DNA from: Candidatus Omnitrophota bacterium
GTDB taxonomy: Bacteria; Omnitrophota; Gorgyraeia; 1-14-0-20-64-10
NCBI GenBank assembly: GCA_016177405.1
Contig: JACOVG010000027.1
Span: forward strand, 14,733-78,732
Direction: 5' to 3'
Length of the DNA: 64,000 nt
Part shown: positions 23,979 through 58,161 of the stretch, piece after piece
Position numbering within the stretch: position 1 is the stretch's first letter
Layout: each line of letters begins with the position of its first letter
Position numbers and translations under genes: made by a program
The notes under the pieces: generated by a model
Seen by the model: only the letters and a program-made list of their open reading frames with translations
The model's database searches: none
Told to the model about the DNA's origin: nothing

Positions 23979-24117
23979 CCCGTCTAGTTTCCCACAGATG
24001 CCAGGTGCCCGCAAGACCCCAGGTCGCGAAACACGTTAATAGGAATAGAAATCTCGTGTACACACTTGATTATTTCGAGGGCATCAGGTAGGCTTTTTGT
24101 ATGGGTCGAATTCCGCC

Positions 24118-27105
24118 ATGAGGCCAAACCCGCGATTCTTCTTAGCAAGATTTTTCGCCCCTTTGCTCTCGCTGGGGCTTGCCCTGCCCGATGTCTCTTT
24201 CGCACTTCGGCAGAACATCGAGGGTACCACCCAAGCTGGCTTAGAGGAGGCCCTTCGGCCCATTGTTGCCGCCGGCTTGGAGGAGGAGAGGAGACTGTCG
24301 GAGGCCTTGGAGGGGGCGGCTTTCCAAGGAGGGGCGCGTCTCATGAAGGACATCATCCGGTGGGCCGAAAAAGATCTGGCGGCAGCCGAAGCGGCAACCG
24401 CCGGTTTTTACGAGTTTTCTCAAGCGCGGCTCCCGGATTCGGTCGGCCAAGACAGTAATGGATCAGGCCATCTTATCGCCAGGTTTCTGCGGCTCGCCCA
24501 AAGAGCTCCCACCAGCCCTCCTCCAGCCTGGCCTCGGGCGGGGCCGAGTCAGGAAGAGTCCGCCGGGTCTGACGGAAGGCAAAAAAGCCGTCTCCTGAAG
24601 GCGCCCAAAAGCTATTTCCCCTGGGCCGGCCCCAAGGAGTTTCAGGCAGGCATGAAGGCCGCCCGGGAACGGTTGGCCACAGCGGGGACGGATGAGGAAG
24701 AGGAAAAGGATCCCCCCAGCAAAGAGGAGATCAAGCGGCTGGAAGGGCCCCTCCACCAAGGGCTTCACGCTGAAAACATCCTCCGAGACTATTCGCGCCT
24801 TGTTCAGGAGGCGGAGGATCTGCTGGTCCGGCTTCACCACAGGCTTATCCTCGCTTGCATGAAGGATAAAGGGATTACGCGCGACAGGGATCATCAAATC
24901 TTTGAGGATGTACGCCAAGGCGGCTACCTGGCCTTGCTAAACGCGATTCGGAACTACAATCCCAATCAAGGAACCGCCTTTTCCACCTATGCCTACCAGG
25001 CCATCCGCCGGGAGATCCACGACACCCTTCAGGCGATGTCCAGAAGACTTAGAATTCAGCCGGACGATCTGGAACTCTTTTTCAAGACCGCCCAAGAGCT
25101 GGAGAAGAAGCAGGGGATAGAGCCAGGGCCCGAGGAGATCGCGGAGGTCTTAGAGAAAGAATCCTCTTGGGCCGAGGCGATCTCCCATTGGAGGCAAAAC
25201 CCAGACTCCCTCAACCGGCCGGTAGGCGACGCCCAGCTTCTTGATCTCATCGAGCCCGAACCATTGGAGCCAGAATGGGAGGAAATCGAAGAGGAGAAGC
25301 GCGGCGTCCGTAAGGTTCTTGAGGCGGTGCGCCGCGAGAGCCCCGATGGCAGGCGAGACGCGCTGGTCCTCAAACTTTATTATGAGCTGGGAACCAGGAA
25401 TGGCCCTTACACACAGGAGTGGATCGCCAAGAGAACGGGGATCACCCCTCAACGGGTCAGCCAGATTATCCAGGATGGCATCCAGACGGCCCAAGAGCGT
25501 CTTGAGCTGACCCGTGAAGGGCGCGTGGAACCGATTCGTCCCGAGGCCCCCGGCCCCGCCGCGGGGGTTGCTTCCGGCGACGGCCGGGACAACGATGCCG
25601 ATGTCTATCTGATCGACGTGATGGGGATTCCGTACACGAGCCCCCTCTTTGAGCCGCTAAGCCGGCTTAAGAGGAGAGATCTCGAGAAGATCCAAGGGGC
25701 GCTGTCGGCCCATAGGCCCTTTCCCCTTAAGATCAAGCCAGGGGAATCTTTCCCGCGGCGCTTGACGCGGATCCGCCAATTTTACGGCCTGACCTCCAAG
25801 GCGGCAGCCCAAGGGGCAGGGGTGAGCGCGACAACCTACTCCGCCTGGGAGAACGGGCGCCAGTTGCCCAAGGGAGATTCTCTCAAGCGGCTGGCCCGCT
25901 TCTATGCTGAAGCCTACCGTCTCCATCCGGACGCGGTTCAGAGATACTTGGGGATGAGATCTCCTTGGTCGGTCTTAAGAAAGCTGAAGGGCAAGCCCTC
26001 GCGGCTGATCCTGAAGGGTCTGCGGGTTTCACAGTGGCACTCCGCCGAGGGATTCGCCAGGGCCGCGCTGCCCGGGATGAATCCAAAGAGCTACGTCTTA
26101 TGGGAGAAGGGAAGGAACGTCCCGCCGCTGGCCTTCTTGAGAAGGATCGTCTCCTTTTACGTGAGAGAGCGGGGTTTTCCCCAGCGCTCCCTGGAGAGGA
26201 CCCTTGGGATTCCAAGCCCCAAAGAGGTTCTTAAGGAGTTGAAGGGCAGGCCCCTGCCTGAAATACTGCGCGGCCTGCGCGAGTCGGTTCCCCTGACCAT
26301 CGCCGAACTGGCCTCTTTGGCAAAGATCGGCCCCAGAACCGTCACCCGGTGGGAAAAGGGCGAAGTGGTTCCCCTGCCGGCCAATCTTCGGAAGCCGGCG
26401 GAGGTTTATGCGCGGGGGGGTCATTTTCCAGAGAAAGAGCTCTTGGCCCTTTTGGATATCCCTTCGACAGAGCTGTTTCTTCAAGAGATCGCCTCTCGCC
26501 GGGGCGATGGGCCCAAGCTTCTTGATTCGCTGGAACACTACCTCGGCCTTTCCCAGTCTGGGATGGCCCGCCTGGTCGGTGTCGAGAAATCAACCTATCG
26601 GTTTTGGAAGCAAGGGAGGATAAAGCCGCCTCTTTCCCGGCGCTATCAAATGGTTGCGCGCCTCGCTGAAGAGGGCCGCCTTCCTGTCGAGCCCCTCCGA
26701 GAGGCCTTTGGCCTGGATGGGCCCGAGAAGACGTTGAGCCGTTTAAGAAGCATGCCGTTTCCGAAGGCCCTCCGGCACCTTCGCTGGGTGTACGGCATCG
26801 GAATGTCGAAGGTCGCCGGCCGCCTCGGTGTTTCTCGGTTTACCTACCGAGGACTGGAAAAGAGGGGGACCTTGCCGGCCCGATATCTTCCGACGCTGGC
26901 CGCTTATTACAGCGGTCTGGATGGCCTGCCTTCGCCCAAGCTCTTGGCTGCCCTTGAGGCCGGCCGTCAAAGGTGGCAGTCGGCTGATCGTGTCCGCAGG
27001 ATGGCGGCCGCCCCCGCCGCGCTCTCCGGCGCGGGGCTGGAGGAGGGTCTTTCGGAGCGGCTTCAGAGAGAACGCGGGACCGCCTGGCTCGGCGGGCAGG
27101 CATAG
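24118..27105 (+). CDS. GLEE-punctuated family protein: leader, sigma-70-like module (regions 2, 3, 4), five tandem HTH (XRE-like) repeats of about 85 aa each
   Basis: The start is set at the second ATG (MRPNPRFFLARFF...) because the first ATG lies inside the conserved promoter-like box. Leader ends ...VSFA-LRQ. GLEE at aa 48 and 60 (24097 numbering) and AGLEE 23 aa before the stop. FSTYAYQAIRREI (region 2-like) and LKLYYELG...TQEWIAKRTGITPQRVSQI (region 4-like). Five repeats carry the wEkG core of Cro/C1-type HTH. Confidence 0.6.
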   Translation: MRPNPRFFLARFFAPLLSLGLALPDVSFALRQNIEGTTQAGLEEALRPIVAAGLEEERRLSEALEGAAFQGGARLMKDIIRWAEKDLAAAEAATAGFYEFSQARLPDSVGQDSNGSGHLIARFLRLAQRAPTSPPPAWPRAGPSQEESAGSDGRQKSRLLKAPKSYFPWAGPKEFQAGMKAARERLATAGTDEEEEKDPPSKEEIKRLEGPLHQGLHAENILRDYSRLVQEAEDLLVRLHHRLILACMKDKGITRDRDHQIFEDVRQGGYLALLNAIRNYNPNQGTAFSTYAYQAIRREIHDTLQAMSRRLRIQPDDLELFFKTAQELEKKQGIEPGPEEIAEVLEKESSWAEAISHWRQNPDSLNRPVGDAQLLDLIEPEPLEPEWEEIEEEKRGVRKVLEAVRRESPDGRRDALVLKLYYELGTRNGPYTQEWIAKRTGITPQRVSQIIQDGIQTAQERLELTREGRVEPIRPEAPGPAAGVASGDGRDNDADVYLIDVMGIPYTSPLFEPLSRLKRRDLEKIQGALSAHRPFPLKIKPGESFPRRLTRIRQFYGLTSKAAAQGAGVSATTYSAWENGRQLPKGDSLKRLARFYAEAYRLHPDAVQRYLGMRSPWSVLRKLKGKPSRLILKGLRVSQWHSAEGFARAALPGMNPKSYVLWEKGRNVPPLAFLRRIVSFYVRERGFPQRSLERTLGIPSPKEVLKELKGRPLPEILRGLRESVPLTIAELASLAKIGPRTVTRWEKGEVVPLPANLRKPAEVYARGGHFPEKELLALLDIPSTELFLQEIASRRGDGPKLLDSLEHYLGLSQSGMARLVGVEKSTYRFWKQGRIKPPLSRRYQMVARLAEEGRLPVEPLREAFGLDGPEKTLSRLRSMPFPKALRHLRWVYGIGMSKVAGRLGVSRFTYRGLEKRGTLPARYLPTLAAYYSGLDGLPSPKLLAALEAGRQRWQSADRVRRMAAAPAALSGAGLEEGLSERLQRERGTAWLGGQA

Positions 27106-28267: not shown

Positions 28268-29521
28268 ATGCGACTCTCCCAATGCCCTGGCAAAGTCTTC
28301 AGCGTGAGGGTTGTTGCCACTTTTCTGGCCCTGAGCCCCATTCTGTCTGCGCCCGCCCTTGCCCTGCGTGACCCAGAAGCGCGAGAGAAGAAGCCGGAGG
28401 TTCTGGGTGGTCTGGAGGAGGTTCTTCGCGGCGATCCCACTACTTCTGCAACGGCTCCTTCCGCGGCTGTCTCCCTAAGCTCCGCCGCCGGGCTGGAGGA
28501 GGGGTATCGGGTGGTACCTGTGACGGAAGAGTACGCCCTGCGGCACGCGGAGGAGTTGGCGGCCATCGATGCGGGGGATCCCGTGTGGAAGAAGGAAGGG
28601 CGTTGGGGTCCGGAGCGTTTCGCCACGGACGTGCGGCCTACCACGGGGACGCGGCTACAGGGTCTTTGGAAGTTCAGCTTCGTTGCGGAGGATGTTTCGG
28701 GGATTCCCGTGGCCTATATCTACGCAGCCGATGGCCAGCCGGACATCCCCGTGACCGCAAGGTACCGCGGGGCGTTTATCGCCCGGGTGAGTGTACGGCC
28801 GAACCAACAGGGACGCAGATTGGGCCCGCGTCTTCTGTTGGCCGTCGCCCGCGCGGCGAAGGAAGCTGACGTAGGTCCCTACGTGACGCTGGAAACGGAC
28901 AAGGAGAACACCCGCGCCCGCCATGTGTACGAGTCACTGGGTTTTCGGAGCGTCGGGGAACGGCTTGAAGAAAAGAAGGGAGTTACTTTCATCGAGTACG
29001 CTGTTCTTGTAGAAAACCTCATCCAGCGCGCGGAGGAGAAGCTCGCCGCCGGCCTGGAGGAGTGGGTGCCGAGGTGGCTGAAGGGACTGGCGACGCCTGA
29101 GGAGTTGGAGCATTGGATTCATCATGGGCACGAAGCCCTGGCGGGGTCTCCGTCGGTGGCGGTGCTGTTTGATCCGGGCTTGGTGCCTGGGAGGGACGAC
29201 GGGGATCGGGAGCTGTTGCTGCTCGAACTGGAGGGACAGATGCGGTCGGTGTTTGCCTTGCCGGAAGAGGTACGGTTCCGGATTGGACTGCGGGGGGCGA
29301 AGGCGGATTGGGAAAGAGAATTCCGGATTATCGAGGTGGTGCGGCATCCGGAAGGCAGGCCGGAGGCCCCTCCCCTTCCGATGGGTGCGTTGCCGTTGGT
29401 GGTTGCGGAGGCGCTGGCCTCTCCCCACCCGCGGTTCTATACCGACCCGCTGATTTACGCCGATTTGACGGAGCTTACCCTGCCGCAGGCCCTGACGGAC
29501 CTGACGGATCTGTTCGCCTGA
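28268..29521 (+). CDS. GLEE-punctuated family protein: leader, GNAT acetyltransferase domain, unknown C-terminal domain
   Basis: Leader ...PALA-LRDPE. GLEE at aa 48, 75 and 262. Canonical GNAT motif A (ARVSVRPNQQGRRLGPRLLLAV) and motif B (YESLGF). TATAAT lies 12 nt before the ATG and there is no SD. Confidence 0.65.
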   Translation: MRLSQCPGKVFSVRVVATFLALSPILSAPALALRDPEAREKKPEVLGGLEEVLRGDPTTSATAPSAAVSLSSAAGLEEGYRVVPVTEEYALRHAEELAAIDAGDPVWKKEGRWGPERFATDVRPTTGTRLQGLWKFSFVAEDVSGIPVAYIYAADGQPDIPVTARYRGAFIARVSVRPNQQGRRLGPRLLLAVARAAKEADVGPYVTLETDKENTRARHVYESLGFRSVGERLEEKKGVTFIEYAVLVENLIQRAEEKLAAGLEEWVPRWLKGLATPEELEHWIHHGHEALAGSPSVAVLFDPGLVPGRDDGDRELLLLELEGQMRSVFALPEEVRFRIGLRGAKADWEREFRIIEVVRHPEGRPEAPPLPMGALPLVVAEALASPHPRFYTDPLIYADLTELTLPQALTDLTDLFA

Positions 29522-37724: not shown

Positions 37725-40700
37725 ATGAAAACAACCCCGATGCGGCGTTTCTTTTTTCTCCGCTTTGTGAGCGCTTTTCTTATTCTCACGCTGGCCGTTC
37801 CCTGCCCAGCCCACGCCCTGCGCGCCGAGGGTCCCACCTCCAGCAAGGTTGCGGCCGGCTTGGAAGAGGCCCTCGGATCTAAAGCCGCCGACCCGCCGAA
37901 GAAGTCCAAGATTGATGTACGGACGAAAGAACTGTCGGTAAAAGACACCGTGCTGACGGTTCAACCCCTTTCACCGGACGATCTCCTGAATTACCGAGAG
38001 GATCTTTGGGAGCTCCTTAAACTCATCCCTACGGACATTCCGCACGATGAAACAATCATAGATGAGATGCGGCAAGGGAAGTGGTACGACCGGGATTTAA
38101 GTTTCGCGGTCTGGGATAAAATGTCGAATCGCCCCATCGCTCTGGCCACCCTGATGATCTCTACAGATCCCCGCTACAAGCTTGGGACGGCGGTCATCCT
38201 TGAGAACTTCGCTGTCCATCCGGATTTTCAGGGGACCCCCGCAACCAGCTGGCTGCTCCACCGTGCCTTTTCCAACGCGCACGCGCTCCTTTCTCGACTT
38301 CATAAGGGGGGACCTCTCTATGCGCACCTGCTCACCATGAAGGGGGGTCGTCCGGATAAGCTGGGTTCAGAACGGGCGGAGCGTTTTTACACCAAGATGG
38401 GAGGGGCGGTCAAGACAAGAATCCCGGTAGGTTGGGAGGTTAAGGCCGGAGAATTCGAGGGTCATGTCTTCAAGAATCCTCATCTGGAGTTTGAGTTTGC
38501 CCTTCCTGGATGCCTCGCGACGATCGAGCAGGAGTTTCAAAAAAAGCTGTCCTCCGGCCTGGAGGAGACGCAGGCGGTGGAGGTTCTTCAATGGAGCATG
38601 GAGGATCTTAGAGAGGTCCTAAGGAAGCGCGGTCTCCTTCGGCTGGGTCAAACCGATGACCAAGCGGCCGAGCTGGCCTTGAAGATGACGCTTGAGGAAA
38701 GATTCAAAACCCGGCCAACGAAACCGATTCTCCTTCGGGTTCTTCCTTCTAACCAGACGCAGGCGAGATCTCTGGAGGAGATCGGGCTTCAGCCTTTGGT
38801 GAGCCGAGAGGATATCGTAAGCCGCCTGGAACTTAGCGCTTATGAGGACCACGCCATTTCCCGCATCCGCCTGGAACAAGAAGGAGAACACCAGCATCTC
38901 TCGGTGCCTCTTTCCAAGCCGCTTAAAATTCCTGGGACAGGGCAATCTCTTGTGGAGGTCCGGATATCGTCCGGAGACCGGCGTTTTGATCAGCTTCCAG
39001 AGGTGTCGCGGCTTGTCCAGGAGCTTCGTGAAAGGAAGGCCAGCGCCTCCGATAAGCGAGATTTCCTCCAAGAGCTGCCCGGGCGGCTGCGAAACGGGAA
39101 GCTTCGCCTCTCTCACCTGCCGGCGTTTCCGCTTGGGTTGAGGGAGGAAGCGGACGTAGAAACGTTTGCCCGACGGGTTCAGCTTGACCCCTCCCACTCA
39201 AACCTTCTGGTATCGGAGGGGAAAGCCCAGGAAGCGCGCGAGCGCGAGGAACGATCCGCCAAGGCGAAGCCTCGAGAATCTCTTCCGGCGGAACCTCCAA
39301 AGAAGGATAAGCCCCCCGCGGCTGATCAGGAATCGGTGGCCCAGGCGCGCGAACTGGCCCGGAAGATTGCGCCGGAGGCCGCCCACGCCCTGGAGAGGCT
39401 TCTTAAAACCTTGGCTCTGGCGGCCTCTTGGGCTGGGATGCCGCCCAATTCAAAGGAGGTTGAAGCGCTGGGGGAAGAGATGCGCCGAGCCCTTGAGCCA
39501 GAACAGGTTGTGAGGAACCACGTTCGGAAAGGCCGCGCGCCTAACGAGGAGGAAGCGAAACGACAGCTTGCCCTGCTGGAAAAGCAGCTGCGGGAACGGA
39601 TGAGGCGATTGTACAAAACGAAATCAAGGGATGAGGTGGTAGCTTCCTTTCTCTCGCAGATTCAGCGGATGGCGACGGAAAAGAATTGGGCCAGCTATTG
39701 GTGGCTGGATCCGGACGTCGAAGTGCCTGTGCCCGAGGCGGTGACGGAGCTCTACCTGGTGGATCCTCCCGAGCTGGATGAGGCCGCCACCGCGGTCCTC
39801 TTGGAAGCGACCCGCTTGCTTCAGGAGGCCTTGGTACACCATCCGCCGGAAGATCCGAAGAGCTTGCTGTTTCTTCGAAAACTTCAGCTTAGCGGGGTGA
39901 GCTACTTGGCGTCAAAGAAAAAGCTTCCCACGGAACTGGCCGACGCCTTCGTTCGCGACCCAGGGACCTACCAGGGGGAGCTTTGGCTGGTGCGCCAGAA
40001 CTTTTGGTACCAGAAAATGCGCACGCAGAAGATTAGCGAAAACCACACGGGTCCACCGGGCTTGGTGCAGAGAGCTCCTCGTAAGGGGAGGGTGGAGAAT
40101 TCCAGCCATGAAATTGATTTTGGAACCCCCGGGCAGCTTTCAAGATCCTCTTTGAAGAAGATGCTTCTGACCAAGATGAAGCTGGTCCAGCAGCCCGTCG
40201 TCAGCGCTCCCCGAACGAATGGGGAGCCCGCAGGGCCGACGTATGACGACCATACCCGAGCCTTCATCCTTCTGGAGGTGGCCAGTCAGCCGGGGCACTT
40301 TTCGAAACCTGGAAAGTTGGAGGACGAGAGAAAATCATTCCTGCGGGTTATGTGGATTAGGGTAAGCGAGTTACAGCGCGCGCTCAAGCAGCCTGAACCG
40401 ACGTTTAAAGATGCCTACCAAAGAGGAAGACCTTTTCTTGAAGCCATTCAGATACCGGAAGAGGTCAGGCGGGATGTCCTCTTGGAGGATCCCGCGGCCG
40501 TTATCAACCTCTCTGCGATTATGTTGGAGGTGATGGCCCGGATCGCCCAGAAGCTGTCAAGCGATTTTCCGTTGGAAGAGGGTCTCGAAGGTAGTCGGGT
40601 CTTGCGCAGAGAGCTGACGTGGCGCTACCCCGCCTATCGGCCCTGGTGGCCCGGTCTGGCAGCCGCCGGCAAAGGTCAACCCTCCGCCGGCCCCTCGGCA

Positions 40701-43700
40701 GAGCTCGGGGCCGGGCTGCCCCAAAAAGGGGCTCCAGTTTATGGGCCACATGAAGGTGGCCCGAAAACTTCGGGGTTGGAGGAGACGGAGGGGAAACCCA
40801 AATCGACGGAGGAGTGGTTTCAAGCGGGGCTTGAATTTCTCCAGGAGAAGGATTTTCCATCGGCCGCTATCGCCTTCAGGGCGGTCACGGATCTGGATCC
40901 TGGCCTGGGAGAGGCGTGGTCGAATTTGGCCATTGCTCTTCTTGAGCAAGGCCTGTTGGAAGAAGCCCTTGCGGCCTCCCAGAAGGCCGTTATTCACCTG
41001 CCAAATTGCGCTGCGTGTTGGCTTATTCTCGGAAACATCCACCGCAACGCGGGCCGCCTCTCCAAGGCCATCAATGCTTATGGGACCGCTCTCGAGCTTG
41101 ATCCCAAGTTGTCCCAAGCCCATTCCCAGCTGGGTTTAACCTATCATCGAATGGCAGTTCTTATTTTGGGACGCCAACCCCCTCCTGATAGTGCCGAAAG
41201 CGAGACCGCTAAAGAATGGCTTCATCTGGCGAAAGAGGCCTACAAAGCGGCCATCGGCTTGAATCCGGATGACCCGCTGACCTTGAACAACCTTGGAAAT
41301 GTTTTCTTAAGCCTGGGCGATCCGGCTTCGGCAGAGGAAAACCTCCGGGGCGCCGTCATGGCCGATCCGGAATATCTGAACCCGTGGATCAACCTGGGCC
41401 ATCTCTACAGAGAAACCGGCCGCTTTTCCGACGCGGCAAAGGCCCTCTGTGAGGTGCTCAAGCTTAAGCCGGAGGACTTTGACGCCTGGGATTTGTTCCT
41501 CAAGATGAGACTGGATTCGCGGGGGCAGGGGCTGGAACGGATTGGCCGCCTTCACCTGATCTGGCACTCCATCTTGAGGTTCTCAAGAGCAGCAAAATCA
41601 CCGGAAGAAATGCCTGAACTTGCCAGGCGGCTGGAGGATGTGAAAAACCACGGGTTCCTCCCAAGCGATGTTCCCTTCATTCTCGGCATACCTGGCGGCT
41701 CTCCCGAGAGGATGTGGAGTTTGTTCTTTGAAAAGAAGGCAATCCGGAAACGGTTCCTGGCGCTGGGCGGGATACTCATTGCCATGGACGGCGCCTGGAG
41801 GACCAACGCGGATGCAGGCCGCTCACTCTCCCCCGATGAGAGAATCAGACAGCTCACAGAAGATACCACCCGAGGCTTGGGAGAGCTCCACACTGAAACA
41901 GGGCTCCCCTTCCTGGATCTCGATGGAGATCCGGAGCTGATGGATGTGATCGCCAGAACGCTCCAGTTCCTATTGTCTCCTCCACCCGAGGCCGGGCTGG
42001 AGGAGAAGATTGAACGATTTGGGGAATTGGTAAGGCAAGCCGGCAAGATCCTCGATGGACAGACGAAGCAAGGCCTCCTGAAGCCCAAGATCCAGCAGAT
42101 TCAAGAAGAAAGGTTCTTCATCGAGGGAGGAATCGCTTACCTTCCGCACCGGCAAGGAAAGGCCGTGGTGATCGGAGACCTCCATGGCGATCTCGAAGCC
42201 CTCCAAAGGACTCTGAAGATGGTAAGAAAGGAAACCGGCTACGACCCCAAGACCAACAAAAACTCCGCCGCTCCGGTCTACCTCGTTTTTGTGGGGGATT
42301 ACCAGGATGCGGGCTCCCAAAGCCTGGAGGTCCTCCTGACCGTTCTGGATCTCTACGCGGAAGACCCGAATCACGTCATCCTTTTGGGGGGTAACCACGA
42401 ACGGGGCCGGGCGCAGTACTGGAGCCCGGACGTGCGGGCGGAGGGCCCTGACTCCCATTGGTTTTTCAAAGACATCAATAAGATCGTGGGCAGAAAAAAA
42501 GGAGGAACGCTTTACGACAGGTGGCATCGGTTGTGCTTAAAGATGCCGGTTTTGGCGGTTGCGTCCCAGGGGCTGGTGGTTGCCCACGCGGGTTCCTCCA
42601 ATACGGTTTTGGAGGGGCCGGGCATCGCTGAAAAATATGGCGAGAAGCTCGATCCCAGGAAGGGACTCTTAGGCATTGCCCAAAGCAGGGATCTCCAGGA
42701 CCAGATCAGCTGGAATCCCATGCCCAGCCCAAAAACAGAAGAAGCGCTTCAACAGGCCCAGCAGGCACCCGATCGGCGCAACGATGCATTCAGGCGGCTT
42801 AATCCCAGGCGGCAAAAGAGAGGTTTTTGGACGGGGCGAGAGGGATTCGATGTCTTCATGGAGGCCATCGGCGGCAAGGTTATGGCGCGGGGGCATGACC
42901 GCCTGGCCCCGTGGTGGGTGACCCTTTTTAACGGCAGGGTGATCACCCTGATTGGGACCCACCACCAGAGCCCCCATTACGGATACCGCAAGGATCAGAT
43001 CACCGCCCGCTTTGCCGTCTTCGACCTTGCCAAGAGCTACGACCGTGTCGATCCCGGGGAAGTGCTCCGATTCCCTTGGGGCAAACCTTCCGCCAAATCC
43101 GGCCTGGAGGAGACGCAGGAGCTGATTGACCGATTGGCCAATTCAGAAGAGCCGATCACCGAGGCAGACGTCCGGGAGCTTAATGGCCATTACCAAGAAC
43201 CTTCCTCTCCAACCTACCGGGAGGCCATGACCTTGCCTCCAAACGCTGAACATGAAGCGGCCGGTGGTTTCCGGCCGGAGGCGCCCATTGCCGAGCAGAT
43301 GAGCGACTTTCTGAAGTGGCTGAATACCGCAGCCGGCAGCCGTCAAGACCCCCGCGTCTATCCGTCGCTGGGGCAGAGCATTCCCGATCGAAAGCCCTGG
43401 AATCTGGATTGGAATGACCCGGCTACCCATGCGGCGATGGCGCACTGGCTTTTCCATCAGGTGATCCATCCCTATGACGATGGAAACGGGCACACCGGCT
43501 GGGCCTTATTGAACATCCTCCGGCGAAGAGCCGGACTGCCGCCGGTTCGGTTCTTAGCGGAGAGAGAAGCCGGCTATCTCAAAACCTTCCGTTTGAATCG
43601 GGATCCCTTTCCGTATCTCCAGTTTATGGAGGAACCGACGGGGATGCAGGCAGAGGGAGGCCTGGAGGAGGGGATGCGGAAGTGGCGCCCGGAGCTGACC

Positions 43701-46004
43701 AGGAGAGTGAGGCAAACCGCCCGGGCGTGGAAAAGGAGGGGATGGCTGCGCTCGACCAGGGCATTCACCCAACCGGTCGTGGAGGCGGCGCGCTATGCCG
43801 AGATAGGCCTTCAAAAATCTCAAGGCAAAATGGGAGGAAGGCAGAGGATTTGGGAAAAGCGACTTCGAACCGTCATGGCCTTCAGCCGCTTTTTGCAGGC
43901 CCTCGAGGCCGATTCCCCTTCCCAGAGCCCCGCGAGAATCCTGGAGGGTTTTTCCCGCGGCCGATCCGGCGAATGGATCGAGTTTCCCGGCTCGGAAGGG
44001 GAGGCATTCCGGGTGAGGGTGGGGATTCGCAGGAGGACCAACCGCGGGGTTGGCCCGCGCAGGGTTGTGCCGCTTATCTCGATGAATTTTGAGGAAGGAT
44101 CTGCCTCGGACGGCCCTTTCCGTCCCATTGGCTCTGTGAGGATTGGTACGGATGAGGACGGAGGCTGGGAAAGGCCCCTGGTTCACCTGGACCTCTCCGA
44201 TCCCGTCAGAGGCGGCAGACAGAGGAATTGGTTTTCGCACGGCGAGATGGCCCTTGCCTGGTCTAACTCGCTAAGGGCTGGCAGGATTCATGAGGCCTTC
44301 GGCGGGTTTCTCAACAAGCTCATCCGCCACATCGAAGCCCTCCCCCGGAAAACAGCCGCTGGGCTGGAGGAGGGGGAAGAGGTGCAGAAGAAATTTAAGG
44401 AAACACTGCTCCGGCTGAATCCGGCTTGGAGACCTTTTATTAACCCTCTCGGTCCCGAACAGCTGAAAGATCTCATGGCCCAACCCTCCCGGGCTTCCCG
44501 ATGGCTGGGCCCACTTTGGGGGGGGATGGGGGGACGTAAGAAAGAACGGATGGAGGCGGAGCTTCAAGAGGCGAAGGGAGTTGCCGATCGTTACGCGCAG
44601 TGGTTAAGGCGGGAGAAACAGAGGCGCTCCTCTCCAGAGGGAATCCGACGCGCGATCGAAGAAGTAAGCCACAGGATTTTCCAATTGGAGCCGCCAGACC
44701 TTCGTGCATCGGTAGGAGAAGTCACGGCAACCATGACTGGCGATCCGCAGTTTTCGGGATTGCGCTACATCCCCATGAGAAGAATGGTCCAGGCGCTTCC
44801 TGTCCTCTCTGAAACGCTGGGGTTGGTCCCAGGCCCAGGCAGGCGCTTTCTGGAGATCGGCGCAGGTCCTGGCGGTGGAATGGGCCTTGTTGCTGCCCTG
44901 AAGGGAATGGAGGTGTTCCTGGTGGAGACCGACCAGCCCTTCGATGTGAATCTGGGTGAAATGAGGGAACATTTTCAACGGATGGACCTCACCTCAGAGA
45001 CGCTGGATCAGATGACGGCGAAAGGTGGAGTGGCGAAGGTAAATCCCCTCGAGAAGCTGGAAAAAACTCTGGCACCCCACCGGGAGGCGATCAAGGCAGC
45101 CAACGGTTCTGTGACCGTCATTCCCGGCGACTTCTCCCGTCCCGAGGTGCAGAAGAAGGTTATTGAGGCCGGACCCTTCTCCATTATTGTGGCAACGGAC
45201 GTAGTCGATCCAGCCGGCGGACAATTTAGAGCCTCACTGGGCGCTACCACAACGGGAGAACCCTCGGCGGCGAGGGCCATTCTCGAGGGATTGGCCAAGG
45301 TGGCGTCGGCTTCCAGTGAGAGGGGGAGATTGTATGTGAGTTTCGTGGGCAGTGAGATGGGTCTCTTGGGCTCAAAGGTTCAAGAGACTTACCAGACCCT
45401 TGAGGAACTCCTTCGAGCCGAGGGTCTTCCGGCAGACCGTTTTGAAATGGCGCCCTCTCCTTCATCAGGGGGAGTTCTTCGGGCTCGGATTTATCGCTTA
45501 GACGGCACCCCCACGGAAGGTTCCTTCCAATCTTTAAGTGAGGTGATGGGGGCCGGGCTGGAGGAGAAGCCGGAATGGGTGCAGGGGATCCGGGCGGCGC
45601 AGAAGCTGGGCAAGGTGGCGGTGCTGTTTGATCTGGAGCTTTTGGCTGAACTGGGAGAAGATGAATTTGCGCTTCGGATGATGCTCGTTGAGCTGGGAGG
45701 CATCTTGCGGAATACCTTGGCTTGGCCCAAAGAATCTAAGCTTCGGCTCGATTTGTCCAGCGAGGCGGATGAATACGTTGGGGAACAGGGGTGGGAGGTG
45801 ATTCGTGTGGTTCGGGATTCGACAAGGGGTGAAGACGAGGAGGCGCTGACCGTGGCCTCACTGCCAGGCATTGTTGCCGAAGCCCTTCAGGCCCTGGCGC
45901 TAGGAGGCGAAATCTTCCCGGTGGTGGTGGGGGTCTATCGAGCGGGGCTGAAAGAGAAAACCTTGCCGGAGGTGTTGTCGGATATGGCCAAGCAATTCGC
46001 GTAA
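37725..46004 (+). CDS. Giant (2759 aa) GLEE-punctuated family protein: leader, GNAT-like, unknown 740-aa region, TPR, PPP-type phosphatase, Fic-like, unknown, class I methyltransferase, C-terminal domain
   Basis: Leader ...CPAHA-LRAEG. GLEE at aa 45, 278, 1017, 1424, 1793, 1979, 2213 and 2611, each at a domain boundary. PPP motifs GDLHGD and GNHE, with GDYQDAG in place of GDxVDRG. Fic-like core HPYDDGNGHTGW. MTase motif I LEIGAGPG. TPR repeats at aa 1050-1400. The first domain is homologous to a domain of the 54178 protein (LIPTD...LSFAVW...AVHPD[FY]Q.TP...WLL..AF, NPHLEFE). Confidence 0.65.
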   Translation: MKTTPMRRFFFLRFVSAFLILTLAVPCPAHALRAEGPTSSKVAAGLEEALGSKAADPPKKSKIDVRTKELSVKDTVLTVQPLSPDDLLNYREDLWELLKLIPTDIPHDETIIDEMRQGKWYDRDLSFAVWDKMSNRPIALATLMISTDPRYKLGTAVILENFAVHPDFQGTPATSWLLHRAFSNAHALLSRLHKGGPLYAHLLTMKGGRPDKLGSERAERFYTKMGGAVKTRIPVGWEVKAGEFEGHVFKNPHLEFEFALPGCLATIEQEFQKKLSSGLEETQAVEVLQWSMEDLREVLRKRGLLRLGQTDDQAAELALKMTLEERFKTRPTKPILLRVLPSNQTQARSLEEIGLQPLVSREDIVSRLELSAYEDHAISRIRLEQEGEHQHLSVPLSKPLKIPGTGQSLVEVRISSGDRRFDQLPEVSRLVQELRERKASASDKRDFLQELPGRLRNGKLRLSHLPAFPLGLREEADVETFARRVQLDPSHSNLLVSEGKAQEAREREERSAKAKPRESLPAEPPKKDKPPAADQESVAQARELARKIAPEAAHALERLLKTLALAASWAGMPPNSKEVEALGEEMRRALEPEQVVRNHVRKGRAPNEEEAKRQLALLEKQLRERMRRLYKTKSRDEVVASFLSQIQRMATEKNWASYWWLDPDVEVPVPEAVTELYLVDPPELDEAATAVLLEATRLLQEALVHHPPEDPKSLLFLRKLQLSGVSYLASKKKLPTELADAFVRDPGTYQGELWLVRQNFWYQKMRTQKISENHTGPPGLVQRAPRKGRVENSSHEIDFGTPGQLSRSSLKKMLLTKMKLVQQPVVSAPRTNGEPAGPTYDDHTRAFILLEVASQPGHFSKPGKLEDERKSFLRVMWIRVSELQRALKQPEPTFKDAYQRGRPFLEAIQIPEEVRRDVLLEDPAAVINLSAIMLEVMARIAQKLSSDFPLEEGLEGSRVLRRELTWRYPAYRPWWPGLAAAGKGQPSAGPSAELGAGLPQKGAPVYGPHEGGPKTSGLEETEGKPKSTEEWFQAGLEFLQEKDFPSAAIAFRAVTDLDPGLGEAWSNLAIALLEQGLLEEALAASQKAVIHLPNCAACWLILGNIHRNAGRLSKAINAYGTALELDPKLSQAHSQLGLTYHRMAVLILGRQPPPDSAESETAKEWLHLAKEAYKAAIGLNPDDPLTLNNLGNVFLSLGDPASAEENLRGAVMADPEYLNPWINLGHLYRETGRFSDAAKALCEVLKLKPEDFDAWDLFLKMRLDSRGQGLERIGRLHLIWHSILRFSRAAKSPEEMPELARRLEDVKNHGFLPSDVPFILGIPGGSPERMWSLFFEKKAIRKRFLALGGILIAMDGAWRTNADAGRSLSPDERIRQLTEDTTRGLGELHTETGLPFLDLDGDPELMDVIARTLQFLLSPPPEAGLEEKIERFGELVRQAGKILDGQTKQGLLKPKIQQIQEERFFIEGGIAYLPHRQGKAVVIGDLHGDLEALQRTLKMVRKETGYDPKTNKNSAAPVYLVFVGDYQDAGSQSLEVLLTVLDLYAEDPNHVILLGGNHERGRAQYWSPDVRAEGPDSHWFFKDINKIVGRKKGGTLYDRWHRLCLKMPVLAVASQGLVVAHAGSSNTVLEGPGIAEKYGEKLDPRKGLLGIAQSRDLQDQISWNPMPSPKTEEALQQAQQAPDRRNDAFRRLNPRRQKRGFWTGREGFDVFMEAIGGKVMARGHDRLAPWWVTLFNGRVITLIGTHHQSPHYGYRKDQITARFAVFDLAKSYDRVDPGEVLRFPWGKPSAKSGLEETQELIDRLANSEEPITEADVRELNGHYQEPSSPTYREAMTLPPNAEHEAAGGFRPEAPIAEQMSDFLKWLNTAAGSRQDPRVYPSLGQSIPDRKPWNLDWNDPATHAAMAHWLFHQVIHPYDDGNGHTGWALLNILRRRAGLPPVRFLAEREAGYLKTFRLNRDPFPYLQFMEEPTGMQAEGGLEEGMRKWRPELTRRVRQTARAWKRRGWLRSTRAFTQPVVEAARYAEIGLQKSQGKMGGRQRIWEKRLRTVMAFSRFLQALEADSPSQSPARILEGFSRGRSGEWIEFPGSEGEAFRVRVGIRRRTNRGVGPRRVVPLISMNFEEGSASDGPFRPIGSVRIGTDEDGGWERPLVHLDLSDPVRGGRQRNWFSHGEMALAWSNSLRAGRIHEAFGGFLNKLIRHIEALPRKTAAGLEEGEEVQKKFKETLLRLNPAWRPFINPLGPEQLKDLMAQPSRASRWLGPLWGGMGGRKKERMEAELQEAKGVADRYAQWLRREKQRRSSPEGIRRAIEEVSHRIFQLEPPDLRASVGEVTATMTGDPQFSGLRYIPMRRMVQALPVLSETLGLVPGPGRRFLEIGAGPGGGMGLVAALKGMEVFLVETDQPFDVNLGEMREHFQRMDLTSETLDQMTAKGGVAKVNPLEKLEKTLAPHREAIKAANGSVTVIPGDFSRPEVQKKVIEAGPFSIIVATDVVDPAGGQFRASLGATTTGEPSAARAILEGLAKVASASSERGRLYVSFVGSEMGLLGSKVQETYQTLEELLRAEGLPADRFEMAPSPSSGGVLRARIYRLDGTPTEGSFQSLSEVMGAGLEEKPEWVQGIRAAQKLGKVAVLFDLELLAELGEDEFALRMMLVELGGILRNTLAWPKESKLRLDLSSEADEYVGEQGWEVIRVVRDSTRGEDEEALTVASLPGIVAEALQALALGGEIFPVVVGVYRAGLKEKTLPEVLSDMAKQFA

Positions 46005-54177: not shown

Positions 54178-57100
54178 ATGAGAAGACCTACCGTTGCGCT
54201 GGCCACAGGCGCCTTTTTCCTTGCCCAACTCTTTGGGCCGGGGCCCTCCCATGCTCTCCGCCCGCAGCAGGACGTGAGGGTCGGCTTGGAGGAGGCGCTC
54301 GCGCCCGCCGCTGGGCTTGAGGAAACGGCGAAGGCGGCGAATATTATCCGAAAGAACCACCTGGTGGAGGGATTACGCGGAGGCGAGTCAGACGCGACGG
54401 TAGTTTCGGCCTTCCTGAATCAGATACGAAGGCCGCCAACGGATGCGATAGCCATCTCAAGGCCCCCCTTGTCTGAAGAGCCGTACCGGACCGGCCCCCT
54501 CCTGCGGCGGGAGATGGAGAAGGTATCGTGGGGCAGAAGCTACGATGAAAAATACTGGCTGCCGGCCTTGGAACTGGTTCTTCAAGCGGCGGCCAGGCGG
54601 TTGAAGGTCGCCCCCAAAGAGCTTGGTCTCGTGAGCATGAAGCATCTCATGAGGCATCTCTTTCATGCCCGCGATCTCCAAGGGGATCTTCTCATGGGGG
54701 AGGATTCCGAATTGGATCTCTTCCGCTGGGCCTACCGGGAGATTCCCCGGACGGTAGCGCCCAAGCTTGCCTCCGGGGAGATCGATTCAAAGAAGCTCCA
54801 CGACGCCCTCGCCAATCCCTTCAAGGATTCCAACGATCGAGGCAACGACCAGGTGCAGCAAGCGATCTTTGAGTTGATGAGGGAGCATCCCGAACGGTTT
54901 GTAGATGATCCGAAAGAGCTGAAGGATAAGCCGCTGGAAGAGCTCGCGCCGATCGTCGAATCCTGGGTTCGCTTGGCCCTGGCCGCCAACCGGGTGGATT
55001 ACAGCCGGCCGGTGGCCTTGAAAGAGATCGAGAGGGTAGGAGGTCTGATTCCCTTTGTGAGGCGGGGGTTAGACACCCCATTTCTCGAGGCGCTGGGGCG
55101 AGACAACTATCTTAAGGAATTTGTTCAGCAGACCCTCGTCGGCTCTCCCGAGGTCTTTTTGGTCTATCTCGCCGACAACAACGCCGAGCTGACCGCGAGC
55201 TTGAAGCTGGCAGAGGTTCTCTTGTCGGCCAACCCCAACCTGGAGATCGCCTTTGTGGTCAAGGAGGATAACGGCGTCATGAACGACGCCTCGCACGAGG
55301 ACGCCTGGAGGATGATTTCCCACCAGCGCGATGGGGTGCCGGACATCTACGAGAAGCTGCGCGGCTATTTTCCAGATCGGTTCAGACTGCTTAAGGGACC
55401 CGGCTCCCAGGGGCTTCCCCTCAACGCCTTGCGAGCGGATGTGGCCGAGGCCTTGAGAGAGGCGGATGTCATCCTGGCCGAAGGGGAGGCCAACACCTGG
55501 ACGTTGAACGGACTGGACAAAGAGAGAATCTATCTTGCCTTGCGGCTAAAACAGGAAACATGGACGCGCCTCGTGTGGGGCATCGGCAAGGAGATTCTTT
55601 CTGATGATAAGCTGAAGTCCGAACAGCCGCCCGTCTTCGTCCGGATCGATGGGGCCCAGGGGGCATACTACCAGAACCCGCTCAAGGACCCCGACGGGGA
55701 AAACCCTTCCTGGACCATCTTAGAGAACTTGGACCCCTTGAAGCCGGCCCACGCGGGCTTGGAGGAGAAGGTGGCGCGGATATTGCCCGAGCAAATACTC
55801 CGGCAAGATTTCGGGAGGGTAAGGGAGGTTTCCTTTTTAATGGGTGGAGGGCTCGCGGCCTCAACGGAGAAGGCGCGTTTCCTGAAGTGGGATTCTTTCG
55901 AAGGCGAGCCGAGGGTTTTTGGGCACGACTCTTTCAAAACAGTTGTTTTCAGCCGCGGCGGAAATACCATCGCTTACGTGCCTTTCGATCAGACTGAAAA
56001 TAAGGGAGTCTCGGTCTACGATCTCGCCGAAAGGGCTGGCCGATTCATCCGAGTGGAAGAAGCCCGGGGCCCTGTCTTTCAGGCGGCGCTCGATCCCGAT
56101 GGAAAGCGATTGGCCCTTCTGTTTCTCGGCGAACCTAAAACCAAGGGAAAACCTAAGATCAAACTTCAAGTGAGAAATTCCACAACGGGCGAGCTTGAGC
56201 ACGACCTTGATATTTCAACGAAAGGCAAAAAGGTGCCGCTCCTTTTTACTCCTGATGGAAAGAAGCTGATAGCGGGGGAGTTTTTGGGCGATAACCCAGG
56301 TACCTCCCTCCGGTTTCTGGATCTTGAAACGAAGAAGGTTCATCCCTTGGCAGGCTCTTCCTCCGGCCTGCTCCAGTCGCTCCAGGCCTCCGACACCGCT
56401 TTGGTGGCCGCGGTGGCCGATGCCGATGGCAGCCGGTTCTACGCGATGACTTGGAATCTTACGGGAAAACCCACATCTCCCCGCGCCTGGCCGTTAGATC
56501 ATTCGGCGAGGTCGGTGGCCCTAAGCCCTGATGGTCGAACGATTGCCACCGGTAGGATAGAAGGGGAAATCCACCTTTGGGAAGTTGGCACGGGAAAAAA
56601 GAAGGCGATCTTGGAAGGCCACACCGGCGAGGTTTCCGCGCTGGCCTTCAGCCCGGATGGCAAGCGGCTGGCCAGCGGCAGCCGCGACGCCACGGTCCGC
56701 CTCTGGGACCTCGCCGGGCTGGAGGAGACGGAACCCGGCGTGCCATCGGCGGATGTGCGTTCCGGAGTATTGTCTGTCTATGGAAAACAGGCCCAGGCGC
56801 GTCCGCTGACGGAAACGGAGCTAAGAACGCACGAAGATACGTTCCGTGGGTTGCTGGAGTTGATCCCCACCGACAAAGATCGAGAAACGGATTTTATGGA
56901 CAGGCTTTTGAAAGGACACGAAGGGCCTGATCCGGGTTTAAGCTTCGCGGTTTGGACAGGGGGGCGCCCCATCGCGGTGGCGATCTTGACGAAATCGAAG
57001 AATCCCCGCTATCAAAATCGAAAGGCGGTCGTTTTGGAAGATGTCGCGGTGCATCCGGACTATCAGAGGACCCCGATCGCGGCTTGGCTGCTTTACCAGG

Positions 57101-58161
57101 CGTTCGCCAACGCTGCGCAACAGGGTTATTCATACGCCCATTGGCTGACGATGAGCGGCGGCCCTCAAAAAGAGGGTTGGCCGAATAAGTGGCCCGGCGC
57201 GGAGCGATCCGTCCCATTCTACAGGAAGTTCGCCGCCGTCATCAGGGAGGTCCGAATCGGTGATGCGGCGGCCGAATTTCCTGGGTACGCTTTCAGGAAT
57301 CCACATCTGGAGTTTGAGCTGGAACTGCCGGCCGGACTTGGCCAGCTCAAGACCAGTTTCGACGAGAAATCGAAAGCGCTGGTTACCGTCTACGGCGACC
57401 CTTGGGGCGAAGGTGTTCTGGACATCAGTGTTGAAATTCCGGTTGAGCCGGGAGCGAAGCGATCCGAGTTAGAGCGATTGCGGGATACTGCCGCGGATCG
57501 CCTGCACGAAGCGTTTCGTCAAAGCGCGTTGGTTTCACAAACCTCCTTCACGCTGACCCGTTTAGACGACAGCCTTTACTTGAGAGACCAAAGCGATGAG
57601 GTGAGCATACCCAACATTCATTTGTGGGAGGCGATCAAGAATACGGTGGATGCCTTGGCGGACCGTGCCGACGTGGAAAACCGGAGAATAGACGGCACGT
57701 TGTACGTTCGCGTTAGACGAAGAGAGGATCGCTGGCGAATTGAGTTTTCGGATAACGGCATCGGCTTTCCGGAACCCCCTTCAGATGTGTTCCGTTATGG
57801 ACCGTCGGCGCCCAAAGACAAAGAGCGCCGCTTGGGTTCGTTGGGAATGGCGTTAAAGGAGGGGTATTACGGCAACACGTTTTTGGGGCGGCACAGCGGT
57901 TTGTTGGTGATCGACAGCACGGATCGAAATTACAACGGTAGGCGAATGGTCTATGACGCGGTGGAGAAGAATGTTTTTCAAGAGCCCAGCCAAAGGAATG
58001 GCGGAATAGGGACGACGGTCATTTGGGAGTTCGGACCTTTGGCTGCCGGGCTGGAGGAGCCGCGGGCGGAGGCCCTGCGGGATGCGGGGTCCCCGCAAGC
58101 CCTGATCCCGACGTTTTCCGAAGGACTCAAGCAGACGCTGGAGTTGGCGGATGACCCCTGA
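54178..58161 (+). CDS. Large (1327 aa) GLEE-punctuated family protein: leader, DUF89-like, WD40 beta-propeller, GNAT-like, GHKL-type ATPase
   Basis: Leader ...[9 protein letters not shown]. GLEE at aa 36, 46, 527, 847 and 1291. DUF89-like motifs ([24 protein letters not shown]). WD repeats ([31 protein letters not shown]). GNAT-like domain paralogous to the first domain of the 37725 protein. Bergerat-fold motifs EAIKNTVDA (ExxxNxxDA) and DNGIGFP. Confidence 0.65.
   Translation: [1327 protein letters not shown]

Follow-up and report, generated by a model that had tools for sequence, protein, structure and literature searches.

A Fic-fold cassette in a GLEE-punctuated giant protein

The window, a 64,000-nucleotide stretch of DNA from a Candidatus Omnitrophota metagenome-assembled genome, carries a long open reading frame whose stop-free translation of 2,759 amino acids corresponds to MBI1953617.1 (Table 1); the deposited version (P0001, 2,754 amino acids) starts 5 residues downstream. 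The N-terminus is a signal-peptide-like segment ending in ..PAHALR, which is followed by eight cassettes set apart by [A/S/G]-GLEE separators. GLEE occurs eight times in the protein against 0.2 occurrences expected, and the maximum reached in 2,000 shuffles was three. Since the codons differ synonymously between copies (GGC/GGG/GGT, CTG/TTG/TTA/CTT and GAG/GAA), we rejected a DNA-level repeat as the origin of the motif. Only three Pfam matches are found in the protein, to TPR (residues ~1021-1257), Metallophos (1480-1724) and Fic; Pfam detects no ankyrin repeats anywhere in its 2,759 residues. The Fic cassette is bounded by the fifth and sixth GLEE, which begin at residues 1793 and 1979, and it adjoins a GNAT-like domain and the metallophosphatase; another cassette bears a methyltransferase-like Gly-rich motif, EIGAGPGGG, that has no Pfam match.

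Table 1. Positions in the window of the host open reading frame and of the elements of its Fic cassette.
Feature	Nucleotides	Strand	Residues	Remarks
Host open reading frame	37725..46004	+	2,759 aa	MBI1953617.1, Candidatus Omnitrophota metagenome-assembled genome
Fic-fold cassette	43101..43670	+	1793-1982	Both bounding GLEE included (fifth, 43101-43112; sixth, 43659-43670)
Start-of-core helix PITEADVRELN	43152..43184	+	1810-1820	Conserved 'PIT..d...L(N/H)' (A1 consensus)
Flap (target-dock) region YREAMTLPPNAEHEAAGGFRPEAPI	43215..43289	+	1831-1855	Length kept, sequence divergent
DFLKWLN	43305..43325	+	1861-1867	
Active-site loop HPYDDGNGHTGW	43467..43502	+	1915-1926	
Helix after loop ALLNILRRRAGLPP	43503..43544	+	1927-1940	..GWaLMNxLLxRaG

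The Omnitrophota are bacteria of ultra-small size that have escaped cultivation and probably depend on a host. The GLEE-punctuated architecture of this protein is more unusual than the Fic domain that it contains. Most Fic cassettes of related proteins are flanked on both sides by separators of the AG-x-EE type (A1 consensus); the motifs of relatives include GVEE, GAEE, GQEE, TSHA, SPSG and DNGG, in the place that GLEE has here. In the model of the Fic cassette, the leading GLEE makes up the opening turn of a helix, with a pLDDT of 93. A phmmer comparison of each giant-protein cassette with all retrieved proteins gave no constant partner for the Fic module; it matched only paralogues, within the window, of cassettes 1 and 8. 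The HExxH motif of zinc proteases, which would mark a candidate self-processing enzyme, is absent from the four GLEE proteins. A literature search for GLEE in Omnitrophota found nothing relevant; earlier work on giant Omnitrophota proteins gives their cleavage points as not known (bioRxiv 10.1101/2023.11.21.568195).

A sequence-only reading had proposed a Fic layout between the fifth and sixth GLEE, and sequence, profile and predicted structure all bear this out. The cassette reads ...EEPITEADVRELNGHYQ...AMAHWLFHQVIHPYDDGNGHTGWALLNILRRRAGLPPV, and the isolated 190-residue segment matches Pfam Fic (PF02661) with 30.1 bits (curated cutoff 24; E=9.3e-7). In the PDB, the segment matches FICD chains at E=3.7e-9, and HPYDDGNGHTGW pairs with HPFtDGNGRTaR position by position; a profile built from its clade (see below) reaches E=4.7e-26 with FICD. 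An AlphaFold2 model of the cassette (pLDDT 87.5) has an all-helical core of the Fic type in which the active-site loop precedes a long helix, and the best 50 Foldseek matches to this model are all Fic proteins; the nearest solved structures are FICD/HYPE and BT_2513, a Fic-domain protein of Bacteroides that has yet to be characterised (PDB 3cuc). Residues 1793-1982 are a genuine, self-contained and well-folded Fic (Fido) domain, one bead of a giant multi-enzyme Omnitrophota protein.

Individual elements of the fold can be traced along the cassette. The start-of-core helix aligns by profile with 'sVTisDVleiH' of FICD and is modelled as a helix at residues 21-29 of the cassette, and the Trp of DFLKWLN is nearly invariant across the clade and common to FICD (fvqWLN). 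The helix after the loop is the most conserved stretch of the clade, its Asn being kept in at least 90% of members. The flap is less well defined: residues 41-60 of the model have a pLDDT of 57-58, neither strands nor a hairpin are predicted there, and the sequence contains Pro-Pro.

Loss of both phosphate-clamping arginines from the active-site loop

[quoted passage not shown] The window copy has H1915 (CAT, 43467-43469), Y1917 in place of Phe, D1919 and G1920-N1921-G1922. Both phosphate-clamping arginines are replaced, the first by His1923 (CAC, 43491-43493) and the second by Trp1926 (TGG, 43500-43502). Translation and the FICD alignment confirm the core motif at the place where the sequence-only reading had put it, together with its account of a retained His and D-G-N-G and two substituted arginines. 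Among 117 ordinary, non-clade Fic matches from the same search, the first Arg is present in 116 and the second in 114, so that both replacements are real departures from the family norm. The change from Phe to Tyr, to which the same reading had also pointed, is present yet trivial, as it recurs in 3 of the 117 canonical matches and in other clade members.

The metazoan ER enzyme FICD/HYPE, an AMPylase and deAMPylase of BiP (PDB 4u04, 6i7g and others), is among the nearest relatives with a solved structure. FICD retains the full motif, HPFIDGNGRTSR, whereas His and Trp take the place of its two arginines in the cassette, and its Fic domain is fused to TPR repeats and a transmembrane anchor. FICD also possesses an N-terminal inhibitory helix (TVAIEGN), the Glu of which pairs with the second Arg. 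The cassette has no such element: its alignment with FICD, like the cassette itself, starts downstream of the site of the inhibitory helix, and a pattern search for (S/T)xxxE(G/N) gave no match in the module or within residues 1700-2100. This absence fits the loss of the Arg with which such a Glu would pair, and leaves room for an inhibitor acting in trans. We also considered the C-terminal 'EGGLEEG' as a mimic of the class III inhibitory SxxxEG motif; it was rejected, since the pattern does not match and the Arg to be paired with is missing.

A clade of Omnitrophota Fic modules with Trp at the second Arg

Relatives of the cassette, about 30 modules, were found only by an exhaustive HMMER scan; a word-indexed homologue search returned nothing with the segment as query, and a single protein (P0018) with the clade alignment. 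In a genome scan with the five closest sequences, four close loci came from genomes and three from metagenomes; among them, L003/L004 and L012 alone added new sequences. The related modules all sit in large Omnitrophota multi-domain proteins; where organism names are given they read Candidatus Omnitrophota or Omnitrophica, with the exception of L002, from a metagenome-assembled genome labelled Planctomycetia. Pfam Fic matches 17 of 29 clade modules at E<=0.01. We group these proteins as an Omnitrophota 'RTGW' Fic clade (defined here, and not a curated family) by a Trp at the second Arg, the PIT helix, WLN, the GWaLMN helix and lineage-specific separators flanking the cassette; judged by these sequence features, the window copy belongs to it. 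The clade has not been described until now, and literature searches with the loop strings GNGRxxW and HRTGW found nothing relevant.

The counts that follow come from a small sample of 31 modules, taken from a set of representatives at 50% identity. At the second Arg, 28 modules have Trp and one each Phe, Gln and Leu; none has Arg. Trp is thus a hallmark of the clade and not a sign of decay, and the window copy, in the absence of canonical GNGRxxR from all clade homologues, is not a one-off decayed copy, a possibility that the sequence-only reading had tied to the finding of such homologues. That reading had also asked whether His and Trp are conserved, to which the answer is divided: Trp is conserved clade-wide, and His is found at the first Arg in only 3 of 31 modules (the window copy, P0003 and L012), 27 keeping Arg. 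P0003 (HPFKDANTHTGW) and L012 (HPFEDGNTHTAW) come from other assemblies and are grouped apart from the window copy in a neighbour-joining tree, which argues that this His is tolerated and not a private lesion; on these sequence counts, it is a recurrent minority state.

Other loop positions vary more widely. The catalytic His is kept in 15 of 31 modules and lost in 16. Residues other than Gly occupy the second-glycine position in 28, and the window copy is among the three with Gly; its backbone anion nest is therefore unobstructed (rationale in PMC8401265). His occupies the second-glycine position in 15 of the 16 modules that lack the canonical His, against 4 of the 15 that have it (Fisher p=1.7e-4, uncorrected for phylogeny). 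The best conserved elements of the clade are WLN, DP..hAA.aHW and GWaLMN.

Ten modules (the window copy, P0002-P0008, L003 and L012) form a His-keeping sub-clade. All ten retain His-Pro-[F/Y]-x-[D/E]-x-[N/S] (the last position is Asn in nine and Ser in P0008) at an overall identity to the window copy of only 36-45%, and in the five closest H123, P124, D127, N129, T132, G133 and W134 (cassette numbering) are invariant. Two of the nine relatives of the window copy in this sub-clade share its His at the first Arg. The sub-clade also retains the long flap spacer: the distance from PIT to WLN is 53 residues in the window copy, 53-73 in the sub-clade and 29-45 in most other members, and the flap sequence is hairpin-like in sub-clade relatives such as P0004 (IGVEDFDGNIVAQF).

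Candidate functions of the cassette

The Fic scaffold supports several chemistries, among them AMPylation, UMPylation, phosphocholination, phosphorylation and deAMPylation. Doc, the P1 toxin and kinase of EF-Tu, is a minimal protein of 126 residues regulated by Phd, and in its motif, HxFx(D/N)(A/G)NKR, Lys replaces the second glycine and the Arg that follows is preserved; the window copy has Gly there and lacks this Lys-Arg arrangement. As a kinase, Doc binds ATP in an inverted orientation (PMC8401265). AnkX of Legionella is a Fic phosphocholine transferase with the motif HxFxDANGRxxV that uses a non-NTP donor, CDP-choline (PMC3667792). The last motif position of AnkX is likewise not Arg, and no other precedent comes closer to a missing second Arg combined with a new donor. 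At the positions of the first glycine and of the first Arg, its loop differs from that of the window copy. AnkX-type proteins are recognised by this loop, a CMP-binding insert, ankyrin repeats and the cutoff of the family model (NCBIfam NF043028), against which the window copy scores 16.5 bits where 1400 is set. Bartonella BepC and Bep8 also have degenerate FIC motifs, but they are FIC-OB-BID proteins delivered by type IV secretion and associated with a FicA-type antitoxin, and the motif changes of Bartonella Beps differ (Glu at the second glycine, for example); none of their FIC domains is known from PMC8401265 to have Trp at the second Arg.

Of the two outcomes that the sequence-only reading had foreseen, an inactive scaffold or an altered substrate or chemistry, we tentatively favour the second, at a confidence just short of probable: the window copy may be active as a Fic enzyme yet unable to hold an NTP in the pose that AMPylation requires. 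We infer that the cassette could be a catalytically competent, unregulated phosphoryl-group transferase; with no NTP clamped in that pose, it would rely on a different donor or a different orientation of the substrate, in the manner of AnkX and Doc. The N-terminal hydrophobic segment suggests that the polyprotein is exported, after which the cassette, possibly freed at its GLEE sites, would modify a target protein. An active enzyme would account for the constraint on the sub-clade loop, the kept flap spacer, Gly at the second glycine and the recurrence of His at the first Arg, and AnkX and Doc are precedents for altered chemistry with non-canonical motifs. Against it stand the loss of both clamping arginines, and we know of no characterised active Fic enzyme that lacks both, as well as the divergent flap, with its Pro-Pro, a pLDDT below 60 and no hairpin in the model. 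Conservation of the loop could also reflect structural rather than catalytic constraint.

This last point leads to a plausible, if not probable, alternative in which the cassette is a pseudoenzyme, a non-catalytic Fic-fold binding or adaptor module that docks a partner or target or stabilises neighbouring cassettes, its loop residues being kept for structural reasons. Because 16 of 31 modules lack the catalytic His and most have a residue other than Gly at the second-glycine position, classical catalysis does not constrain the clade in its entirety, and the case for a scaffold is stronger for the clade in general; the window copy itself sits in the sub-clade that keeps this His. The second Arg is missing from all 31 modules and the first also from the window copy, canonical binding of a triphosphate does not tolerate a side chain at the second glycine in Bartonella effectors and Doc, and BepC, with a non-canonical FIC domain and no detected activity, acts by binding GEF-H1 (PMC8401265). 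The flap, moreover, is shortened in most clade members and poorly defined in the window copy, and the elements conserved best (WLN, DP..hAA.aHW and GWaLMN) are structural. What a pseudoenzyme explains less readily is the sub-clade, in which His, Pro, Phe/Tyr and Asp/Glu are retained in ten of ten members, and Asn in all but one, at about 40% identity, together with the long flap spacer and, in the window copy, both loop glycines. The His found at the second glycine in nearly all His-less modules is more suggestive of rewiring of the active site than of its abandonment.

It is distinctly unlikely that His1923 arose by recent degeneration or through a single wrong base in the assembly, a reading under which the Trp alone would have biological meaning. 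CAC differs from the CGC of an Arg codon by one transition, most of the clade has Arg at this position, and the sequence stems from a single metagenome assembly; P0001, although identical over the segment, gives no independent support for the His because it derives from the same assembly. The open reading frame is nevertheless intact over 8.3 kb, and the same His is present independently in P0003 and L012. A conventional AMP-transferase working like FICD despite the substitutions is highly improbable, even with FICD among the closest solved relatives and with His, Asp, Asn and both glycines in place, given that the arginines for the beta- and gamma-phosphates are both missing and that Fic proteins with a departure from the signature are regarded as having taken on different activities (PMC3667792).

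A more far-reaching possibility, which we regard as rather unlikely, is that these modules would constitute a new Fic class with a rewired site, performing a novel protein modification as part of an exported polyprotein cut at lineage-specific motifs. In such a site, Trp would replace the gamma-phosphate Arg and a 'wandering' His would occupy the canonical, the second-glycine or the first-Arg position. To our knowledge, the characterisation of each new Fic loop variant has to date brought to light either a further reaction or a further way of regulating the enzyme. Always lacking the gamma-phosphate Arg, and with the catalytic His in some branches only, the clade represents a natural experiment on the scaffold without its phosphate clamp; the 190-residue cassette is short and is predicted to fold independently. 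The recurring, lineage-variable tetrapeptides that delimit the Fic cassette offer a testable handle on the organisation, and perhaps the processing, of giant proteins; if the site is rewired and the polyprotein cut, they would amount to the first cleavage grammar to be defined for Omnitrophota giant proteins.

Fic fold and surroundings of the cassette

The host open reading frame, deposited as MBI1953617.1 in a Candidatus Omnitrophota metagenome-assembled genome and annotated solely as a 'tetratricopeptide repeat protein', contains eight copies of the tetrapeptide GLEE, compared with 0.2 expected from composition and a maximum of three in 2,000 shuffles. EEPITEADVRELNGHYQ and AMAHWLFHQVIHPYDDGNGHTGWALLNILRRRAGLPPV were found between the fifth and sixth copies, as the sequence-only reading had stated, and the core motif lies, to the base, where that reading had placed it. 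Elsewhere, the window carries the genes of an ordinary chromosome, including futalosine-pathway radical-SAM enzymes, HemA and cytochromes b and c, together with Ddl, PurH, LeuS, ComEC, BamD, HolA, MurJ, UvrC, SecA and Lnt.

Coordinates of the giant protein, its cassettes and the other GLEE proteins
Feature	Position (nt)	Strand	Remarks
Host ORF	37725..46004	+	2,759 aa, no internal stops; GLEE protein, common architecture
Fifth GLEE	43101 (start)	+	aa 1793, host ORF translation
Core motif	43467-43502	+	
Sixth GLEE	43659 (start)	+	aa 1979, host ORF translation
GLEE protein	24097-27105	+	common architecture
GLEE protein	28268-29521	+	common architecture
GLEE protein	54178-58161	+	common architecture
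GNAT-like first cassette	37857-38555		giant protein
Match to GNAT-like cassette	56734-57369		aa 853-1064 of 54178 ORF
Match to C-terminal cassette	29099-29518		C-terminus of 28268 ORF
Cassette without Pfam match	38556-40772	+	739 aa
Cassette without Pfam match	43659-44360	+	234 aa
Cassette without Pfam match	44361-45554	+	398 aa
Cassette without Pfam match (C-terminal)	45555-46001	+	149 aa

The Fic layout proposed for the segment is borne out by several lines of comparison. The isolated 190-aa segment matches the Pfam Fic model (PF02661; E=9.3e-7, 30.1 bits, curated cutoff 24) and the PDB chains of FICD (E=3.7e-9), whose HPFtDGNGRTaR pairs column for column with HPYDDGNGHTGW. A clade profile built from an alignment of 29 related modules (A1, 186 positions) matches FICD at E=4.7e-26, in two stretches that extend to the C-terminal 'PF..FI' helix, and the Bacteroides Fic protein 3cuc at E=3.8e-14, spanning the 'PIT' helix to position 160 of 186. 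An AlphaFold2 model of the segment, made with A1 as its alignment, reached a pLDDT of 87.5 and a pTM of 0.84; Foldseek's 50 best PDB matches to this model consist entirely of Fic proteins, with FICD at the top (query-normalised TM-score 0.60-0.64). Assignment to the Fic fold is secure, subject to the structure being a predicted one.

An Omnitrophota clade with an altered Fic loop

An exhaustive HMMER search of 1.84 billion representative proteins returned 168 matches at E<=1e-3. Some 117 are ordinary Fic proteins with HPFxDGNGRxxR intact (catalytic His in 117/117, first motif arginine in 116/117, second in 114/117), and about 28, nearly all of them large and multi-domain (the longest has 5,531 aa), cluster with the segment as a separate clade. 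Two more distinct modules, L003 and L012, came from scans of genomes and metagenomes. Organism-named members are all Omnitrophota, with one metagenome-assembled genome (L002) labelled Planctomycetia. The Pfam Fic model detects just 17 of 29 clade modules, and neither the clade nor its loop is described in any paper that our literature search found. The segment is a cassette with the Fic fold from a clade not described before, so far essentially restricted to Omnitrophota, that lacks the second arginine throughout; this copy additionally lacks the first.

Several matches deserve separate mention. P0007 (2,109 aa) has two Fic-like cassettes in tandem (aa ~67-276 and ~252-478) whose loops differ, the first having lost the HPF/GNG residues (..KLHIFALGHHRGGW) and the second keeping HPFSDGNRRTAL with Leu at the second arginine. 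P0009 (784 aa), a tandem array of a ~58-aa unit that matches query residues 71-99 only, in 13 stretches, is probably a spurious match or repeat artefact, and P0010 (127 aa), in which a ferredoxin-like CxxCxxC segment is joined to a truncated module stopping at HPFED, is probably a fragment produced by a frameshift or a contig end. Two giant clade relatives, P0019 (5,531 aa, named for a Glu/Leu/Phe/Val dehydrogenase domain) and P0004 (5,177 aa, annotated as a GNAT-family acetyltransferase), show by eye putative radical-SAM-like motifs, glycosidase-like regions and multi-pass membrane segments; since housekeeping-type enzymes share the same polypeptide, it is not obvious that they are arrays of toxins or effectors alone.

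Loop states were tallied over 31 distinct modules. The second arginine position holds Trp in 28 and Phe, Gln or Leu in one each, whereas the first holds Arg in 27, His in three (this copy, P0003 and L012) and Gln in one. The second glycine is kept in three (this copy, P0006 and P0019) and replaced by His, Thr, Ser or Arg in the others. The sequence-only reading had held that homologs with the canonical GNGRxxR would mark this copy as decayed; no clade module has Arg at the second position, and Trp is instead a clade signature, indicating that this copy is not privately decayed. The same Trp occurs sporadically in otherwise canonical Fic proteins (HPFxDGNGRTGW) of unrelated bacteria: a cyanobacterial MAG (L005), Leclercia adecarboxylata (L006), Actinomycetota MAGs (L007, L008), and P0077 and P0085. 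It is seen in 2/117 of the non-clade matches. Arg-to-Trp at this position is thus a recurrent substitution in the family, of which we found no description in the literature.

The catalytic His is retained in 15 of the 31 modules. Of the modules that lack it, 15/16 have His at the second glycine, compared with 4/15 of those that keep it (Fisher p=1.7e-4, shared ancestry uncorrected), a contrast that speaks against plain decay throughout the clade. Three modules, this copy among them, instead have a His at the first-arginine position; in this copy the second glycine and that position are encoded at window 43488-43493. Together, these patterns suggest, as a lead rather than a result, a histidine that shifts around the loop and not a dead site.

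Possible activities of the domain

Published residue roles give the first arginine a salt bridge to the beta-phosphate and the second a salt bridge to the gamma-phosphate in the AMPylation-competent pose; the loop Asn touches the alpha-phosphate, the loop's backbone amides form an anion nest, and its acidic residue holds Mg2+ (Goepfert et al., PMC3667792). This copy keeps the catalytic His and GNG and has both arginines replaced, as first read from the sequence, so that by these roles it retains the general base, the ligands of the metal and of the alpha-phosphate, and an anion nest with nothing obstructing it. It lacks the two clamps on the beta- and gamma-phosphates and also the regulatory helix that would need one of these side chains: the inhibitory Glu partners the second arginine (PMC8401265), and a pattern search for the inhibitory motif (S/T)xxxE(G/N) found none in or near the module. 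In FICD, the inhibitory helix lies upstream of where the alignment begins.

We tentatively favor, as plausible though just short of probable, a catalytically competent, unregulated Fic transferase; it would use a donor or binding pose other than an NTP in AMPylation geometry, and would modify its target after export of the host protein. This transferase reading draws on the strict retention of catalytic residues and flap spacer in the ten-module sub-clade of this copy (the window copy, P0002-P0005, L003 and L012, with P0006-P0008 basal). Despite overall identities to the window copy of 36-45% among the nine relatives, all ten have His-Pro-[F/Y]-x-[D/E]-x-[N/S] (last position Asn in nine, Ser in P0008) and a PIT-helix-to-WLN spacer, which holds the target-docking flap, of 53-73 aa, compared with 29-45 aa in most other members. 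It draws further on the intact glycines, a side chain at the second being incompatible with canonical triphosphate binding (Bartonella effector analysis, PMC8401265), and on precedent: other activities are ascribed to Fic proteins that depart from the signature, such as the transfer of phosphocholine by AnkX (HxFxDANGRxxV; PMC3667792), and Doc is a kinase that binds ATP inverted (PMC8401265). Against it stand the loss of the catalytic His in about half the clade and the divergent flap of this copy, which is poorly defined in the model (pLDDT 57-58, no hairpin). To our knowledge, moreover, no active Fic enzyme lacks both arginines.

The main alternative, quite possible though somewhat less likely than the transferase and opposed by the sub-clade's retained residues, is a pseudoenzyme that only binds; BepC, for which no activity was detected, works through GEF-H1 binding (PMC8401265). 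That His at the first arginine is a private lesion or assembly error in an otherwise 'RTGW' module seems improbable: it is a minority state, yet recurs in P0003 and L012 from other assemblies, and a rough neighbour-joining tree places these two together and apart from the window copy. Conventional AMPylation, for all the retained catalytic residues, is scarcely credible, the canonical reaction being very unlikely because both phosphate-clamping side chains are gone.

Separators and the punctuated polyprotein

The Fic module is a cassette, with AG-x-EE at both ends in the A1 consensus, and related proteins have their own recurring separators at equivalent places: GLEE or GVEE in most relatives, GAEE in P0025 and P0053, GQEE in P0016, TSHA in P0015 (9 vs 0.015 expected), SPSG in P0019 (11 vs 0.09) and DNGG in L003 and L004 (11 vs 0.06). 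Within the window, 19 GLEE sites are spread across four proteins, each opening with a signal-peptide-like stretch that ends ..A-x-A-L-R, followed by one or two GLEE early on and then by cassettes set apart by [A/S/G/V]-GLEE. Because the codons vary synonymously, GLEE is selected at the protein level. Cassettes are also common to GLEE proteins of one genome, as the GNAT-like first cassette matches part of the 54178 ORF (E=6e-39), while the end of the 28268 ORF matches the C-terminal cassette (E=1.4e-11); this common terminal cassette closes with ..FA in both proteins and might serve in sorting or anchoring. Pfam gives no match at E<=0.01 for four of the giant protein's cassettes, and the Gly-rich EIGAGPGGG motif of the 398-aa one is suggestive of a SAM-dependent methyltransferase.

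In the 24097 protein (1,002 aa, with a signal-like N-terminus and GLEE), Pfam recognises sigma-70 regions 2, 3 and 4 and, after them, a series of XRE-type helix-turn-helix domains; P0013, a protein of similar make-up, pairs a sigma-70 module with a Fic-like cassette. It is unusual for a transcription factor to follow what looks like an export signal, so that either this N-terminus does not direct export or the protein works in a different cell.

It has been suspected that the giant proteins of Omnitrophota are cleaved after translation (West-Roberts et al., bioRxiv 10.1101/2023.11.21.568195), and the separators, of which we found no mention in the literature, are candidates for polyprotein punctuation or cleavage sites. 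A purely structural role for GLEE, as a helix start or linker, would be equally possible, since in the AlphaFold2 model the N-terminal helix of the cassette starts with the leading GLEE as its first turn (pLDDT 93). The domain on its own would be of interest to Fic specialists; the punctuated polyprotein that surrounds it is more unusual.
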